DNA from: Proteobacteria bacterium UBA5680
GTDB lineage: Bacteria > Pseudomonadota > Gammaproteobacteria > Arenicellales > UBA5680
Length of the DNA: 64,000 nt
Direction of reading: 5' to 3'
NCBI GenBank assembly: GCA_002420425.1
Contig: DIIC01000043.1
Coordinates: 26,989-90,988, forward strand
Below the pieces are notes generated by a model. The model was not told the DNA's origin. It worked only from the letters and a program-made list of their open reading frames with translations, and made no database searches. Shown piece after piece: positions 3,377-64,000 of the stretch. Both the position numbers and the translations under genes were made by a program. Each line of letters opens with the position of its first letter. Within the stretch, counting starts at the first letter, position 1.

Positions 3377-4102
3377 TTAACTTTTTGCCATCGTCCCGGC
3401 ATAACCCGTTGCCAAACGACGATGACGGGATTTTCGTTGCCCCTGTGGTCGCACCCCGAGTTCTCTCTTTCGGGCAATAATCAGATAGACCGCAGCCATC
3501 CCAGGCCACCACCGGGCGCCCGCAACTTCCAGAAAACCCAACCTGTCGCGAATCCCCCATGAGACAGTCGGGAGACGATACTCCATTAATGAGGCTGAAA
3601 CGATCTCCAAATCCAGAAGAGACATCCAATCCTGAACCCTTCTGGGAGAAAAATAATTGGCATTCCAGGGTGGGGTTTTACGCCACTGTCGGGTCCAACG
3701 CCACCCTCCCCAAAGGCTATACGGGTTAAGCCCAGTCAGGGCAACAAGACCCTCGGGCACCAATATTTCGACAACCTCTCTTAAAAGCTGATGGGGATGG
3801 GGACTAAAATCCAGAGTATGAGGCAACAATACCAGATCACTGCTTCGTGATCCGAAAGGGAGCGCAGATCCTTCGGCTATCACCTTAAGGCCGTTAAGTT
3901 CACGCGGCAGTTCAATATCCACCAGAACACAACGTTCACAATCGATAAGGTCTACAAACTCCGGCGTTCCACTGCATCCAATCTGAAGGGTGACTGGGAA
4001 ATAGCGATCAGGCAGCATCGCACTAAGTTGACCGCGCTCAGCCTTCATCAGGTCCCTTCCAAGCCTGGAGTTAAACCATCTGTAGGGGGATCGTTCAGAC
4101 AT
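3377..4102 (-). CDS. class I SAM-dependent methyltransferase (YafS-like)
   Basis: Methyltransf_11-like pattern (LQIGCSG ... LPFGSRSSDLVLLPHTLDF). Its position upstream of rnhA-dnaQ matches E. coli yafS. Confidence 0.7.
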   Translation of the reverse strand: MSERSPYRWFNSRLGRDLMKAERGQLSAMLPDRYFPVTLQIGCSGTPEFVDLIDCERCVLVDIELPRELNGLKVIAEGSALPFGSRSSDLVLLPHTLDFSPHPHQLLREVVEILVPEGLVALTGLNPYSLWGGWRWTRQWRKTPPWNANYFSPRRVQDWMSLLDLEIVSASLMEYRLPTVSWGIRDRLGFLEVAGARWWPGMAAVYLIIARKRELGVRPQGQRKSRHRRLATGYAGTMAKS

Positions 4103-4549
4103 CCTCTGTCGCCACCGGTCTCAAATCTTATTTGCAGAGTGTAAAGGATACGACAGTGTGGGTAGAGAAAAAAGCACAATAACAGACAATTGTTTTTCTA
4201 TTCCAAATAGTTATAACTCGTGATCCGCTGGTAAACAGATTATGCCAGTGGTGTGGGACTGTTCACTGGTTTAGGGTATACCGTGAGGTCTATTAAGCTC
4301 ATGGTTTTTATCTGATCACACAATCAATGGGTCCGGTAGCGAACGGCCGAATAGGTTATCGATGCCAGGGGTTGTAAGCGTTGATGTTGGCATCCTGGAT
4401 CTCAGTGGCAATGGTATGGCAGCGGAGCGTTTCAGATCGATGCCGGGTGGCAGAGATCATCCTGATTTGGGTTTGATTTGATTAAAACCGCGACCAGCGG
4501 CTAATTCGAATTGACCTCAAAACCTGTGACACTTACCATCTAGCCCACC

Positions 4550-18171: not shown

Positions 18172-18690
18172 CTACTCCCCTTTAATGGTCTTTGGCAAGT
18201 CTTCTGGAATGAACTCAGCAAGGATTTCAACAACGGGATCAAGGTAACCCGCCAGTTGTGATGTCTCCCACCGGGAGACATCAGACCATCCAACTGTACG
18301 ACTAATAATGACAAAAAACCCGAGGAGCAGAACCCCACGCCCAAATCCAAAAATCAGGCCCAGCACTCGATCTATTCCTGTAATACCTGTTGAAGACATC
18401 AATCGATAGATCAGATGACTGATAATTGAGATTAACAGCAGAGTGGCCACAAAGATGAGCGCAAAGGCCGCTATCTGCTGGTACATCTGATTGTCAATTA
18501 TTCCGTCAAACCAAGAGATAATATCGAGGCGATAGTTAAATGCGGCAACAAATGCAAGAATCCAGGAGACCAGGGAGAGGGTTTCGCGAATGAACCCTCG
18601 AAACAAACCGATTATTGCAGAAAAGAGAATAACCCCGATAATCACAAGGTCAAAAATATCGAGTGGCATTTTTATCATTGTTAAATCCAT
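18172..18690 (-). CDS. cvpA: colicin V production protein CvpA family membrane protein
   Basis: Four TM helices and a GLFRGFIRE motif. Its position upstream of purF matches E. coli and Pseudomonas. The true start may be M8 (18669). Confidence 0.8.
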   Translation of the reverse strand: MDLTMIKMPLDIFDLVIIGVILFSAIIGLFRGFIRETLSLVSWILAFVAAFNYRLDIISWFDGIIDNQMYQQIAAFALIFVATLLLISIISHLIYRLMSSTGITGIDRVLGLIFGFGRGVLLLGFFVIISRTVGWSDVSRWETSQLAGYLDPVVEILAEFIPEDLPKTIKGE

Positions 18691-59164: not shown

Positions 59165-60295
59165 ATGAATAATCCTACTATTGTAATAAGCGGTACAGGC
59201 CTCTTCACCCCCGCCGAACTGATCACCAATGAAGAGTTGGTTGAGAGTTTCAATAAGTATGCTGAGCGGTTCAATTCCTCACATCACGATCAAATTGGAC
59301 GAGGGGATCTAGAAGCCATACCACTGTCGAGCGTAGAGTTTATTGAGAAGGCGTCCGGAATCACAAAACGCTACGTCATCGACAAACGGGGCATCCTCGA
59401 TCCCGAAGTGATGGCGCCACAAATAGCAGAGAGGACCAATGATCAACAGTCACTTCAGTGCGAAATATCGGTTGCCGCCGCTCAGCAGGCTCTTGAAGGT
59501 GCAAATCGTCAAGGTGGAGAGATTGATGCCGTTATTGTCGCCTGTTCAAATATGCAACGCCCCTACCCCGCTATGGCAATAGAGGTTCAGGAGGCGATTG
59601 GGGCCCAAGGATTTGCATATGATATGAACGTGGCATGTTCATCTGCCACTTTTGGCATGCAGGCCGCTTATAATGCGATTATCTCAGGCTCAGCAAGTCG
59701 GGTGTTGGTCGTCAATCCTGAGATCTGCTCAGCCCATCTGGACTGGGAAGATCGTGACTGCCACTTCATTTTCGGCGATGTCTGTACTGCGATTATTCTA
59801 GAGAGGGAGAGTGAAGCGCTCTCTGACCATCGATGGGAGATACTCGGCACCAAGCTAAGCACCCAATACTCAAACAATATTCGTAATAATTTTGGCTTCC
59901 TCAATCGCTGCGATCCTGCTGGCATTGGAAAGCCGGACAAACTCTTCAAACAGAACGGACGAAAAGTATTTAAGGAGGTCTGCCCGATGGTGGCACAGTT
60001 GATCACTGACCATCTGGGTGAGCTCAACATCAAAACTTCAGATCTCAGTCGAATGTGGTTACACCAAGCGAACCTGTCGATGAACAGACTGATCTCAAAA
60101 AAAGTGCTGGGAAAAGAGCCAACGGAACAAGAGGCTCCTGTCATCCTCAACCACTATGCAAACACGAGTTCTGCTGGATCCATCATCGCCTTTCATCTCT
60201 ATAATGCTGATCTCAAGAATGGAGATCTCGGGATAATCTGCTCCTTTGGTGCGGGGTACTCAATCGGGAGTATTATTATAAAAAAACAGATGTAA
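59165..60295 (+). CDS. beta-ketoacyl-ACP synthase III family protein (long, ~375-aa subgroup)
   Basis: KAS III catalytic triad context: NVACSSATFG (Cys), WLHQANLSMN (His) and YANTSSAGSI (Asn). The N-terminus, VISGTGLFTPAELITNEELVESFN, is typical of the long FabH-like subgroup. Confidence 0.8.
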   Translation: MNNPTIVISGTGLFTPAELITNEELVESFNKYAERFNSSHHDQIGRGDLEAIPLSSVEFIEKASGITKRYVIDKRGILDPEVMAPQIAERTNDQQSLQCEISVAAAQQALEGANRQGGEIDAVIVACSNMQRPYPAMAIEVQEAIGAQGFAYDMNVACSSATFGMQAAYNAIISGSASRVLVVNPEICSAHLDWEDRDCHFIFGDVCTAIILERESEALSDHRWEILGTKLSTQYSNNIRNNFGFLNRCDPAGIGKPDKLFKQNGRKVFKEVCPMVAQLITDHLGELNIKTSDLSRMWLHQANLSMNRLISKKVLGKEPTEQEAPVILNHYANTSSAGSIIAFHLYNADLKNGDLGIICSFGAGYSIGSIIIKKQM

Positions 60296-60437
60296 TCTGA
60301 GTAAGGCGGCGGCCTTGCGGATCGTTCGCTCCAACACCGACTGTGTTATCAACAGAAAATCCTGAGTGCTTCCAGGCCAGGAGCCGGTGGGCAAACTCCT
60401 CGGTGATGGCTTCGTCTTCAACCAGGTAATCCAGTAC
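60296..60437 (-). mobile_element. relic fragment of an IS91-family (Y2/HUH rolling-circle) transposase gene
   Basis: The minus-strand frame gives VLDYLVEDEAITEEFAHRLLAWKHSGFSVDNTVGVGANDPQGRRLTQIT. From memory, the W(K/R)HSGFSV..N core and flanking pattern match the central region of IS91-type transposases. The fragment is truncated on both sides by the convergent flanking genes. The track ORF 60260..60442 is in a different frame. Confidence 0.5.
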
Positions 60438-60447
60438 TGCATGAATT

Positions 60448-61065
60448 TTAATAGAGATACTTACTCAGTTCCAACCGAAACACAGTAAATACCAGCAGGA
60501 ACAGGATCATTTCTGCCACTGTGACCACATACAAGATATAGGTAATACGACGTGCCATCGGTTTCATCGGCTGCCATATTTTGCGCATATACCATGGCCA
60601 GCCGGGAACCCATGACCAGCGCTTCCATCGATGCAGGTAGCCGTGCAGGTCGTTTCCCCAATTGACCAGGCTTTTGTCCACCTCATCGATACGCTGTTCG
60701 CGTTCACTCGCCGGGGTTCCAGAATAGTCGTCAGTGACGATCAGTCTGGAGTTGCCGTCGTCCTTTGGTTCAACATGGAAACTGGTAGAAGTGCGCAGGC
60801 CCTGCTGGTAGCTAACCTTGATACCATCATCCGAGCTATCTATGCTGAGCGCTGATTCCAGCAGCCTGCCATTGCTCAGATTTTTTAATTTAAAGCTAAA
60901 TTCTTTGTCGTTAATTAACTGCCAGCTATCAAACACCAGCATCGAATTGATTCGATATAAGCGTTCTATATCGTCCAGAAATGCGCGTAATTCTTTGGTA
61001 TTAAAAGGTGTATCGATACTGACCCAGGCAGAATCTTCATTGTCTGGAACGGAGCTTTCACTCAT
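60448..61065 (-). CDS. hypothetical protein: START/SRPBCC-like soluble domain with a C-terminal Trp-rich segment and TM anchor
   Basis: A 205-aa protein. The secondary-structure pattern (beta, a long helix NTKELRAFLDDIERLYRI, a beta-rich middle, then a C-terminal helix) suggests an SRPBCC fold. This is followed by WKRWSWVPGWPWYMRKIW and the TM helix ITYILYVVTVAEMILFLLVFTVF. I recognise no family motif. Confidence 0.5.
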   Translation of the reverse strand: MSESSVPDNEDSAWVSIDTPFNTKELRAFLDDIERLYRINSMLVFDSWQLINDKEFSFKLKNLSNGRLLESALSIDSSDDGIKVSYQQGLRTSTSFHVEPKDDGNSRLIVTDDYSGTPASEREQRIDEVDKSLVNWGNDLHGYLHRWKRWSWVPGWPWYMRKIWQPMKPMARRITYILYVVTVAEMILFLLVFTVFRLELSKYLY

Positions 61066-61529
61066 GGTTTCGGGTAAGGAACTACTATCAATGACATGGT
61101 CAGCGAGCGAGCCAACAGCTCCAGATCCATGCGTGAGCGATAACCCTCAACGCCTTTGGGTCGCGGTGAACCAATAACAGCTAGACCAAAATCATCCTGC
61201 CCGGCAACATCTAACAAACAGATCGCCGGTTTGCCCAGGCGCACCGTGTTCGAGTAATTAATACCAGCCTGATCACAGGCTTGTGTCATACGCTCCAGTT
61301 CAGCTGCGGCTTCTTGCGCCAACTGACTTTCCACATAGTTGCCAAATCGAATCTGGGTAACTGCGTTATTGAGCCAGTCGTCCCCCATCATTCCTTTCCA
61401 GAAATCCGGCACCACCAGAAGCTGGTGCAGGCTGGCGCCTTTTTCGACACATAAATCGATAGCTGCCAGCTCGGCTGCGCGGGCACCATCCGTACCGTGA
61501 CTGGCAAGAATTATTTTTTTAACTTTCAA
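61062..61529 (-). CDS. universal stress protein family (adenine nucleotide alpha-hydrolase-like) protein
   Basis: USP-like layout (KKIILASHGTDGA ... LAVIGSPRP ... SLIVVP). The canonical G-2x-G-9x-G(S/T) ATP motif is not obvious. TTG start. It shares an ATGA overlap with the downstream 205-aa gene. Confidence 0.6.
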   Translation of the reverse strand: MKVKKIILASHGTDGARAAELAAIDLCVEKGASLHQLLVVPDFWKGMMGDDWLNNAVTQIRFGNYVESQLAQEAAAELERMTQACDQAGINYSNTVRLGKPAICLLDVAGQDDFGLAVIGSPRPKGVEGYRSRMDLELLARSLTMSLIVVPYPKP

Positions 61530-61570
61530 GGAATACTGTTAACGCTGAACACCCGTCGGGTGAATTCAGA

Positions 61571-61606
61571 AAATAAAAAAACCTGGCGCCCATTAAGAGC
61601 GCCAGG
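61571..61606 (-). terminator. rho-independent terminator
   Basis: Minus-sense CCUGGCGC-ucuuaaugg-GCGCCAGG is followed by UUUUUUUAUUU. It lies 22 nt after the stop of the 56-aa ORF. Confidence 0.8.
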
Positions 61607-61628
61607 TGCACTGGATGTGCTACACAGT

Positions 61629-61799
61629 CTATGGGACCATAATGTAAACGCCAAGGGCTATTGCCATCGCTGCTAGCAGCGCGATAAAATCCTCGGCACG
61701 GTCACTGTGGAATATTGACAATGCGGAGCCGCGATGGAACTTGGCATCCGCTTCTTCTTGCAGGTCGGTGTCCTGCGAATCATGTTGTTGATCTGTCAT
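61629..61799 (-). CDS. 56-aa tail-anchored miniprotein (acidic N-terminus, single C-terminal TM helix)
   Basis: ATG 61799 is preceded by GGGGGA at a 7-nt spacing, 12 nt after the transporter stop. Translation: MTDQQHDSQDTDLQEEADAKFHRGSALSIFHSDRAEDFIALLAAMAIALGVYIMVP. A terminator follows. It is below the ORF-track length cutoff. Confidence 0.5.
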   Translation of the reverse strand: MTDQQHDSQDTDLQEEADAKFHRGSALSIFHSDRAEDFIALLAAMAIALGVYIMVP

Positions 61800-61813
61800 T
61801 TCTCGATCCCCCG

Positions 61814-63376
61814 TTAAATAGTTTCACTGACAAAAAATAATATCACAATCAGTGACAGCACCGCCTTAGTCGTTCCGACGATACCGCCGATTACAAGCGG
61901 TTGGCCGCCAGCCTGTTTCATCGATGCAAAAGTTATTTGCATACCAAGACCGGTTAAACCAAATGCAAACAACAGAGTAATCCACTGCCTGAATTTGCTG
62001 ATCTTCTTGGCGGTGTGCCTAACTGCCTTTGTCGCCCCTTTAAGCACTTTGTTGGCGTCCTTGGAGAGGACCTTAGCATTATAGATACCGCGGATAACAG
62101 TCTCATCGTCGATGGTCATAACCTTGCGGTTATCAAGCATGCGTTTGAGCGCCTGCTTGCGGTCGTCTCTTTGCAGTTTGCCCATTTCAGAGCTGACCGC
62201 TGAGATCTGATCATCCTTTAGCAACATCGATTGCTTGACGTTATTGTCGAAATACTTGCCCTTGTAATGCTGCGCAGGCGCAAAAACACCAGTAGATGAC
62301 AACGCGAACATGAGGATAAAGCCCAGCACGAATACTGGAAATTTTTCGAATATCACGGCTCCGACGTTAACCTGTTGGGTAGTTTCTCCACCCTCCTGTT
62401 TAACGTACCAGACTGCTAACCATAAAACGATTATCGGCAAGAACAGCACACGCGTAATATTGAATATCTCGGCTACCTTGAGCGTCTCGATGCCGTCTGG
62501 CTGATACGCTAATGCCGCACCAGCGACCTGCGCAGAATTCAATATACCGGTACCGGCCCAGGCACCAAATTGAATATGACCCAGATCCAGTATATGCCCG
62601 ATAACCGGGAACAGGAACATACAGCCGACACCCCAGATAAGAATGGTACCAATGGTATAGGCGATTTCGACAGCCTTGGCCTGCACTACCGGGGCCGCTG
62701 CAACCGACGCGGACACACCGCAGACACCCATACCGGCTGAAAGAACACCGCCCATGGAACTTGGGATATTACGCCGCTTACCCAGAAACAGTACCAACCC
62801 CACCGAACCCAGTACAAAAAAGCCAACCATAATAGCGGATAGCTTACCGAGTGACTGGAGTTCCGCCAGACTGTACAAAGTACCGAGCAGGATAACACCG
62901 GTTTTCAGGCCAAATCGCGACAGACGAACACCGTTTTCGGCCCACTCAGGGATCTTGAAAACATTAACGATGATGATACCGGCGACTATACCCAGTACGA
63001 CATAATTGAGTCCGAGCACCTGATGCAGGTATTTAGCGCCCATCACCGGCCCCAGGCCAGTACTAATCAAAGCAACCAATGGCGCCAGATACCAGCGAAC
63101 CAGCATCGCCACCAGCAGGATAAATATCGCGCCAGCAACTGTGGACATGTAGTAGTCTAAATTACCTTCTTCATGACTACCAGCCAAGTGCCAGAGCCCG
63201 ACAACAACGGCAACTGCACCAAAGGCGTAGCCCATACCTACCATTTCACCGGCATATTTACCGGCCTTCAGGTAATCGATCAATCCTGATATACCGCCTG
63301 AATCAGCGAGATAAGCAATTGCCACAAAAATAATACCCATAATCAACAAGGCAGGATGCTTTTTTGTATATACCAT
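61814..63376 (-). CDS. YeiH/UPF0324 ('putative sulfate exporter') family membrane protein, enlarged variant (520 aa)
   Basis: It is collinear with E. coli YeiH blocks (SAGMGVCGVSASVAAAPVVQAK, GAWAGTGILNSAQVAGAA, FGLTGLGMQITFASMKQAGGQPL). It also has about 125 extra N-terminal residues with TM helices and a ~95-aa Lys-rich hydrophilic insert. ATG 63376 has an AGGAGG SD, and the track start at 63457 is an over-extension. Confidence 0.75.
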   Translation of the reverse strand: MVYTKKHPALLIMGIIFVAIAYLADSGGISGLIDYLKAGKYAGEMVGMGYAFGAVAVVVGLWHLAGSHEEGNLDYYMSTVAGAIFILLVAMLVRWYLAPLVALISTGLGPVMGAKYLHQVLGLNYVVLGIVAGIIIVNVFKIPEWAENGVRLSRFGLKTGVILLGTLYSLAELQSLGKLSAIMVGFFVLGSVGLVLFLGKRRNIPSSMGGVLSAGMGVCGVSASVAAAPVVQAKAVEIAYTIGTILIWGVGCMFLFPVIGHILDLGHIQFGAWAGTGILNSAQVAGAALAYQPDGIETLKVAEIFNITRVLFLPIIVLWLAVWYVKQEGGETTQQVNVGAVIFEKFPVFVLGFILMFALSSTGVFAPAQHYKGKYFDNNVKQSMLLKDDQISAVSSEMGKLQRDDRKQALKRMLDNRKVMTIDDETVIRGIYNAKVLSKDANKVLKGATKAVRHTAKKISKFRQWITLLFAFGLTGLGMQITFASMKQAGGQPLVIGGIVGTTKAVLSLIVILFFVSETI

Positions 63377-63760
63377 ATTTCCTCCTAGACTATTTATTTT
63401 TTCTGTACGTTTACTGAGTAGTGAAAAGACAGTTATCGAAGTTCTTATCCATGCCACACCAGCCCAAATAGTGCCTGATGGTAACCAGACTATACTCTCC
63501 GTAAATAGAAAAAACGAGGTCAGGGGTGGTGTTAATCCCTACTAACTGTAAGTAATTAAAAAATAAGCAATTTATTCAATGCCAGTCCGCTCTGCGGGTC
63601 AAAAATAACTCAAGATGAGGCAGGGTTTGCTTGAAGAGCGGGCCTGGTAAACAAGTTCCATTCTGATTGGACTATTCGGCATTACAATCTGAAAAAGGCA
63701 AAGTAAATATCTGTCTGACAATTTTATTACCTGGTTGAAGATATTGTTGTGCACAGTCCA

Positions 63761-64000
63761 TCATGAACTAACTATTATTGGTTCCACTTCTTGTCTGCCC
63801 TGAATCAGCGCTGAACCCGCCTCCAGTGCTCTCAAACTTATCTCTGCTATCGCCGGTTTTTGGAATGCTGTTATCGCTTCGGCGAATGCATCTAGATTAA
63901 TAATATCGGAGTCTTTCACGAGTGCTGCCAGAGCTAAGATGCCAATAGATAGACGATTAACTTTCTTAGCAGTAGCAATTAACGGTAACCGAATAATTTC
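63761..64000 (-). CDS. 3' end (79 codons) of a gene resembling the gamma (POR) domain of 2-oxoacid:ferredoxin / indolepyruvate oxidoreductases; partial
   Basis: The frame is open from the window edge to TGA at 63763..63761. The sequence ...RLPLIATAKKVNRLSIGILALAALVKDSDIINLDAFAEAITAFQKPAIAEISLRALEAGSALI... resembles the POR-domain C-terminus (N..mLGA...l...e.l.eai...f....N..A...G). Confidence 0.4.
   Translation of the reverse strand, partial: EIIRLPLIATAKKVNRLSIGILALAALVKDSDIINLDAFAEAITAFQKPAIAEISLRALEAGSALIQGRQEVEPIIVSS

Follow-up and report, generated by a model that had tools for sequence, protein, structure and literature searches.

Gene content and features of the locus

The window, i.e., the whole stretch of 64,000 nucleotides analyzed here, carries a gene for KAS III (beta-ketoacyl-ACP synthase III) that converges on a gene for a 205-aa protein, and the short gap between the two contains a relic of an IS91-family transposase gene. 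The 205-aa gene belongs to a block of four genes oriented like the relic, beyond which lies the gene for pyruvate:ferredoxin oxidoreductase (POR) (Table 1). Contig JASLRM010000023.1 (MAG GCA_030743955.1) is 100% identical to the window, and the proteins of the window are named as Arenicellales (Acidiferrobacteraceae in older records) from marine metagenomes, including those of Tara Oceans.

Table 1. Positions of the features discussed, in the window and in compared contigs, with the island variants found beside KAS III
Feature	Sequence	Position	Strand	Description
KAS III gene	window	59165..60295	plus	conserved gene flanking the island on the left
60-aa ORF of the supplied track	window	60260..60442	minus	other frame over the relic and the KAS III 3' end
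Gap between KAS III and 205-aa gene	window	60296-60447		convergent genes, 152 bp
Spacer, KAS III stop to relic	window	60296..60305	none	10 nt
IS91-family transposase gene relic	window	60306..60443	minus	46 codons = P0263 residues 174-219
Tract identical to sister-lineage Mrp/HisKA relic	window	60332..60443	minus	112 nt
Spacer, relic 5' truncation point to 205-aa gene stop	window	60444..60447	none	4 nt
3.4-kb block	window	60448..63706	minus	upstream of relic, same orientation; four genes and upstream region
205-aa protein gene	window	60448-61065	minus	block gene; stop codon 60448-60450
Usp-like 155-aa protein gene	window	61062-61529	minus	block gene
56-aa protein gene	window	61629-61799	minus	block gene
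520-aa Cons_hypoth698 membrane protein gene	window	61814-63376	minus	block gene
Arrangement-specific junction segment	window	63707..63789		83 bp; at the right island edge
Exact inverted copy of relic 60415-60430	window	63726..63741	plus	16 nt, ATTACCTGGTTGAAGA
tnpA C-terminal remnant	L049 (also in L050)	4088-4207	minus	…KEWPKGCQIPLSCHPVPDIA, internal stop; residues 364-404
tnpA fragment	L047	2-289	minus	residues 3-98, 83% identical to P0263
Mid-gene relic	L047	1045-1167	plus	
AAAGCAAATTCCTATCCCT site	L048	6419-6498		
AAAGCAAATTCCTATCCCT site	L002	3427-3447		
AAAGCAAATTCCTATCCCT sites	L020	5288-5314 and ~7070		
AAAGCAAATTCCTATCCCT site	L049	3865		
AAAGCAAATTCCTATCCCT site	L050	8009-8078		
AAAGCAAATTCCTATCCCT site	L006	~120		
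Island variant, window type	L023, L027, L031-35, L037			relic 138 nt; 3.4-kb block
Island variant	L003/L004			relic ~228 nt; DUF4956, 173-aa protein, B12 radical SAM, GHMP kinase, epimerase, transketolase
Island variant	L036			relic at least 201 nt (contig ends); island content beyond contig
Island variant	L008			relic 91 nt; another ORF
Island variant	L006/L007			relic 59 nt; methyltransferase and 576-aa protein
Island variant, sister lineage	L038-41, L043			no relic at KAS III edge; 2H-phosphodiesterase and four-gene ABC transporter

The 138-bp relic, read from 60443 to 60306 on the minus strand, translates as HAVLDYLVEDEAITEEFAHRLLAWKHSGFSVDNTVGVGANDPQGRR. The corresponding frame of the gap, which is other than that of the 60-aa ORF, reads ...ISIKIHAVLDYLVEDEAITEEFAHRLLAWKHSGFSVDNTVGVGANDPQGRRLTQITSVFL followed by two stop codons or, given at greater length, ...IKIHAVLDYLVEDEAITEEFAHRLLAWKHSGFSVDNTVGVGANDPQGRRLTQITSVFL followed by the same two stops, and the peptide quoted in the first-pass annotation matches this translation. 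Comparison with related sequences shows that the transposase-derived codons run from HAVLDYL to GRR. The trailing LTQITSVFL lies outside the transposase sequence, being read from the complementary strand of the 10-nt spacer and the KAS III 3' end. The earlier estimate of about 47 codons, with both ends cut off by the flanking genes, was close as regards length, as 46 codons were found, and needs correction as regards the ends, since the relic adjoins both genes without overlapping either (10 nt to the KAS III stop, 4 nt to the stop of the 205-aa gene).

Identity of the relic

The relic represents a short internal piece of an IS91-family rolling-circle transposase gene. A tblastn search of the whole window with P0263, a 404-aa and apparently intact transposase, returned a single match with 78% identity over 46 aa (residues 174-219) and an E value of 5e-18, and the DNA of P0263 matched at this site (76% over 140 nt, E 6e-24) and at no other. 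P0263 contains PF14319 and PF04986, exceeds the 125-bit cut-off of NF033538 'IS91 family transposase' with 160 bits, and displays an HUH motif (HPHIH, residues 139-143) and a Y2 motif (RYYGWYS, residues 283-289), as well as a zinc-binding N-terminus and a C-terminal CxxC pair. A second protein, P0133, itself named 'IS91 family transposase', is 52% identical to the relic over 44 aa, while the full-length plasmid transposases of Pseudomonas putida and Trichlorobacter lovleyi match the relic site only within the window (E values of 6e-4 and 1e-3, respectively). Both of the latter hold a core of the relic type, ...MLGYKHSGFSVDTSV... in P. putida and ...AITQWHIDLLMSWHHSGFNVH... in T. lovleyi; the W(K/R)HSGFSV core, which the first-pass annotation had cited, is thus present in true family members. 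The assignment to the IS91 family made in that annotation is borne out by the identity to P0263 and by the profile and domain matches of the latter, and the opposite outcome, i.e., no significant similarity to IS91-family transposases, is excluded by the 46 codons that align with them.

In the reverse direction, tblastn of the relic peptide against plasmids yielded weak matches (E 0.2-1), nearly all of which are to sequences annotated 'IS91 family transposase', and a 117-aa composite of relic copies aligned end to end with the T. lovleyi transposase (E 1e-24). A large protein collection was found to contain many short ORFs with 65-97% identity to the relic peptide, the longer of which extend upstream into TFHPHIHALVADG, which includes the HUH motif, and downstream into RRQLARYMIRNPFSLEKMEYK. 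These longer copies exceed the PF04986 gathering cut-off; one of them, P0003, is 91% identical to the relic and reaches 21.9 bits (cut-off 20.9), and the HUH motif is still retained in this copy and in P0019. Pfam and NCBIfam HMM scans of the 60-aa translation itself (E up to 10) produced no match because the piece is too short; the HMM check that had been proposed for the locus was therefore uninformative on the relic alone, and the homology was shown instead via closer, longer relatives and pairwise searches.

The apparently intact relatives, of which P0263 is the closest, were retrieved from the protein collection with a 243-aa composite query. The matches listed for shorter protein queries, apparently capped at ~1.8 times the query length, were fragments of at most 180 aa; the reading that no intact copies exist was dropped in view of these full-length matches. 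A relic-profile scan of GTDB species genomes identified four fragmentary loci only and no intact copy. The parent IS belongs to an uncharacterised marine subfamily of the IS91 family: its transposase is ~44% identical to the T. lovleyi plasmid transposase, and P0263 and the T. lovleyi protein are 30% and 28% identical, respectively, to the P. putida 'IS91 family' transposase.

Loss of function

Starting at residue 174 of P0263 and ending at residue 219, the relic falls between the HUH and the two-tyrosine motifs and contains neither. It has no in-frame start codon, and tblastn searches with P0263, P0133 and the two plasmid transposases revealed no other part of the IS in the window, the PF14319 zinc domain included. 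Furthermore, the conserved 3'-end motif of the subfamily, AAAGCAAATTCCTATCCCT, is absent from all 64 kb of the window, an absence that serves as a proxy for a missing oriIS. Lacking the zinc-binding N-terminus, the HUH and Y2 motifs, the C-terminus and both IS ends, the relic does nothing by itself; it is non-coding and non-mobile and has no activity of its own, and the 60-aa ORF that crosses it is spurious. An Rfam search with the relic gave no match, and its folding energy is no better than that of shuffled sequence (z-scores of +1.1 and +0.1), which leaves a role as structured RNA or terminator unsupported. A weak terminator-like hairpin with a T-run (CCTGGAAGCACTCAGG ATTTTCTGTT), a consensus match only, is located within the relic at 60376-60361 of the minus strand, ~75 nt past the point at which the 205-aa gene stops.

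Where it does occur, AAAGCAAATTCCTATCCCT is conserved, in the transposase sense, downstream of tnpA genes and tnpA relics at a distance of ~115-270 nt, and it was found in the contigs listed in Table 1 and in subfamily members as distant as that of T. lovleyi. It is sometimes present in two to three tandem copies and is followed by CTTG in contig L049. AAAGCAAATTCCTATCCCT is a candidate for the oriIS end of the subfamily.

A strain-variable island between KAS III and POR

The KAS III side of the locus is 98-99% identical across strain contigs, which carry different genes past the relic. From KAS III to POR, the region constitutes a hypervariable island for which at least five different contents were found and whose boundaries in the window lie at 60305 and 63790. 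All relic-bearing variants of the locus share the 60305/60306 junction, at which GGCCGCCGCC is directly followed by TTACTCAG, and the relic-free sister lineage, whose island sits between the same two boundaries, diverges exactly at this point. The 5' breakpoints of the relic vary: L003, L004 and L036 are broken upstream of 60443, the window arrangement at 60443, L008 at 60396, and L006 and L007 at 60364. This pattern is most simply read as a single old deletion, which gave rise to the junction with KAS III, and later truncations or replacements that occurred independently at the opposite end. The earlier proposal that the relic marks an insertion or recombination event in the neighbouring DNA is supported by this comparison with relatives. 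The codon usage change that had been placed at the same point did not hold up: GC content is 0.47-0.50 on both flanks, GC3 is 0.46-0.51 on the left (queG, orn and KAS III) and 0.51-0.54 in the four block genes on the right, and both flanks fall inside the range of the window's non-overlapping long ORFs (0.40-0.62). No shift in GC or GC3 indicative of foreign DNA was detected at the relic, consistent with a block that is native to the gene pool of the lineage and whose composition is not foreign.

At three unrelated loci (L003 at ~6037, L009 at ~5863, and P0016), relics start within ~3 nt of each other, the breakpoint falling between …CG and TTC(C/T)GGGTTCTGCC, or between F and RVLPPIP in translation. 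These near-coincident starts could reflect a deletion hot spot or spread by recombination.

At the opposite edge, the island boundary falls within the last POR codons (window 63761-63793; L039 ~18500-18521). The arrangement-specific segment provides the last nine POR codons and the stop (63761-63763), and conserved POR sequence begins at 63790; as a consequence, the C-terminal tail of POR varies among island variants, with a 453-aa form ending in ...GRQEVEPIIVSS and a 448-aa form ending in ...GREAINR. This same segment contains the 16-nt inverted copy of part of the relic, located 20 nt beyond the POR stop and beginning at the very nucleotide that forms the 5' breakpoint of the L047 relic. Chance alone would give ~0.004 such 16-nt matches in the window; the copy probably represents a second, minimal scar of an IS, at the far edge of the island.

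The relic-free island of the sister lineage terminates, directly against POR, in the final 41 codons of an IS91-type tnpA plus the non-coding 3' end of the IS, after which CTTG follows. These elements were exposed by contigs recovered in a metagenome scan with a POR-edge 24-mer, which returned two contigs and no new variant of the window arrangement. The IS91 family is characterized by distinct oriIS and terIS ends, by an oriIS next to the target tetranucleotide CTTG/GTTC and by the absence of target-site duplication, and the CTTG that follows the sister-lineage IS 3' end fits this target use (PMC13181058). The tnpA end at the POR edge suggests that an ancestral IS copy resided inside this island.

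The 3.4-kb block and its second locus

Together with the relic, the block (window 63706..60308) is ~99% identical to a segment of contigs L024-L030, in which it adjoins Mrp antiporter genes on one side and a HisKA/sigma54 two-component pair on the other. The junction between the 205-aa stop and the relic, including the 4-nt spacer, is identical at both loci, while the far end of the block in the sister lineage consists of a diverged POR-like fragment in inverted orientation. Contig k141_740945, which is collinear with window positions 1-60305, carries both the Mrp/HisKA locus and a KAS III-POR locus with the relic-free island, ~66 kb apart. Genomes with the window arrangement display a clean empty site at the Mrp locus, being 8.4 kb shorter there, so that the block is present in one place or the other and is not duplicated. 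Its 205-aa protein occurs in roughly 400 sample blocks.

The 8.4-kb sister-lineage island extends from the Mrp operon to the acetyl-CoA synthetase gene (L024 7232-15635 versus L051 3722-3727) and contains the POR-like fragment, the four-gene block, the relic, the HisKA kinase and the sigma54 response regulator. A third variant of the HisKA locus, in L047, has an inverted N-terminal tnpA fragment ~760 bp from a mid-gene relic, a layout that indicates inversion or another rearrangement within or between IS copies.

Mosaic sequence of the relic

The relic of the window and that of the sister-lineage Mrp/HisKA locus differ at positions 60331, 60330, 60327 and 60320, and share no similarity past ~60308, i.e., there is no difference in 112 nt, there are four in the next 12 nt, and the sequences are unrelated thereafter. 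The switch from one type of 3' end to the other is thus located at the downstream end of the identical tract. Were the differences spread evenly, all four would be confined to the final 25 of 137 nt with a probability of (25/137)^4, or ~0.001. The sister relic retains ~10 nt more of tnpA, beyond which it is joined to 38 nt from the non-coding 3' region of the IS. Furthermore, a GG/TT polymorphism at 60378/60377 occurs with both types of 3' end, so that all four combinations are observed: with the KAS III-type end, GG in the window and TT in L034; with the HisKA-type end, GG in L024 and TT in L030. The clustered differences and this four-gamete pattern argue for an exchange between the two loci within the relic. 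Three 5' SNPs that had been considered as proof that the 5' half of the relic came from the sister copy were rechecked in a larger sample and dropped, being polymorphic within both types.

Origin of the arrangement

The homology of the relic to IS91-family transposases, its truncation, the variability of the island, the shared junctions and the mosaic sequence were observed directly. Taken as a whole, the explanation in which this dead relic forms the left edge of the island and the block was relocated by recombination within it is probable in our assessment. The 60305/60306 junction would have arisen once and been inherited by all relic-bearing variants, while on its other side the relic would have been truncated to varying extents and fused to various sets of genes. 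A homologous exchange in the ~112-nt tract shared by the two relics, amounting to ectopic recombination between dispersed dead IS copies, would then either have placed the block at the KAS III locus or have moved it from there to the Mrp/HisKA locus. Movement of the block by homologous recombination and not by transposition is our inference, and the transfer may have run in either direction; recombination in the relic is most likely the reason that the block now stands beside KAS III. A simple double crossover is countered by the second junction of the block, which consists of the 83-bp unique segment here and of the inverted POR-like fragment in the sister lineage. All of the evidence derives from metagenome assemblies, with ERZ27245251 and the Tara run ERR599172 among the source metagenomes; chimeric contigs at repeats are possible in such assemblies, although both arrangements recur in many independent samples and assemblers.

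Part of the pattern could also be produced without any recombination within the relic, if the two arrangements were complementary deletion derivatives of one ancestral island with the order KAS III, ABC-transporter island, IS, block and POR. Order and orientation fit such a history, and the retained sets do not overlap, as the sister lineage keeps the ABC-transporter island and tnpA residues 364-404 against POR and the window keeps residues 174-219 and the block; it nevertheless appears improbable, as it explains neither the second copy of the block, with its identical block-relic junction, at the Mrp/HisKA locus nor the GG/TT polymorphism common to the two loci. Somewhat less improbable, yet still unlikely, is that the block was carried, in either direction between the loci, by IS91-type one-ended rolling-circle transposition. 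In this scheme, a transposase acting in trans would initiate at the oriIS of a defective copy, proceed across its truncated tnpA and, there being no terIS to stop it, co-mobilise the upstream genes. Such one-ended events mobilise the upstream side in the IS91 family (PMC13181058), and this is the side on which the block lies, co-oriented with the relic. The 38 nt of IS 3' non-coding region behind the sister relic, the POR-like fragment at the far end of the block, as if replication had run on into POR, and the IS 3' end with conserved motif and CTTG at the POR edge of the sister island would be in keeping with this route. The window copy, however, has no oriIS-type end, and the motif is absent throughout the window; the POR-like fragment and the block have opposite orientations, an outcome not expected of simple run-on; the HisKA and sigma54 regulator genes lie between the relic and the insertion edge in the sister lineage; and homologous exchange is favoured by the 3' parts of the two relics, which are specific to each locus, together with the four-gamete pattern. 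Both histories may have contributed, but they were rated below recombination within the relic because of the missing IS end in the window copy, the inverted POR piece and the four-gamete pattern, which neither of them explains.

A quite different view, which sees in the 138-bp piece not a passive scar but a small, self-contained unit that is mobile or functional (a MITE-like element, a small protein gene, a regulatory RNA or a terminator), might appeal to pieces that are 94-98% identical in nucleotide sequence at several unrelated loci, to breakpoints that recur across different contexts and to the weak hairpin. It is scarcely credible, given that the copies differ in their ends and show nested truncations, that terminal repeats are absent, that one copy (P0017) is frameshifted and the window copy has no start codon, and that the folding and Rfam results presented above are negative.

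Beyond this locus, it is conceivable, though rather doubtful, that relics of ~100-230 nt from a (nearly) extinct IS91-subfamily element act as portable patches of homology that shuffle blocks between at least two islands 66 kb apart, or else are defective copies driven in trans by one-ended rolling-circle transposition. Were they patches of homology, an abundant uncultured deep-ocean Arenicellales population would be shuffling gene blocks by means of such relics; were they driven in trans, transposase-guided cutting and not random deletion would account for the breakpoints that recur and for the scars found at either edge of the island.

Significance and comparison with known systems

Taken by itself, the relic is an ordinary IS remnant, a routine pseudogene scar, and its interest is contextual, modest and population-genomic. 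For annotation purposes, the appropriate label for the gap is that of a remnant of an IS91-family transposase, the 60-aa ORF called there being spurious. With the relic, one border of an island that varies among strains of a globally distributed, uncultured Arenicellales lineage from the sea is located with single-nucleotide precision, and it offers a concrete, testable case of a gene block apparently relocated via ~110 nt of homology between dead IS copies. Relocations of this kind usually escape notice in metagenome-assembled genomes, in which repeats interrupt the assemblies.

Among known systems, the relic is homologous to the stretch between the HUH and Y2 motifs in transposases of the IS91 family (IS91, IS801 and IS1294; NF033538; PF14319 Zn_Tnp_IS91 and PF04986 Y2_Tnp). 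In contrast to functional members of that family, it retains 46 of ~404 codons and has no catalytic motif, no oriIS, no terIS and no mobility. The ISCR elements (clade Ia, NF052416) are distant homologues within the same HUH/Y2 superfamily; they lack terIS and co-mobilise upstream genes, and an ISCR-type geometry is also seen here, as the block lies upstream of the tnpA relic. The full-length relatives of the relic, however, score 108-135 bits against NF052416, for which the cut-off is 925, and there is no antibiotic-resistance context. A further likeness is to IS remnants that recombine ectopically, by homology, at the borders of flexible islands, with which the present case shares a fragment at the border, ~99% identical strains with alternative contents and a two-locus mosaic. 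It departs from the usual cases of this kind in its very short homology tract (~112-138 nt) and in its host, an uncultured pelagic member of the Arenicellales represented by metagenomes only.
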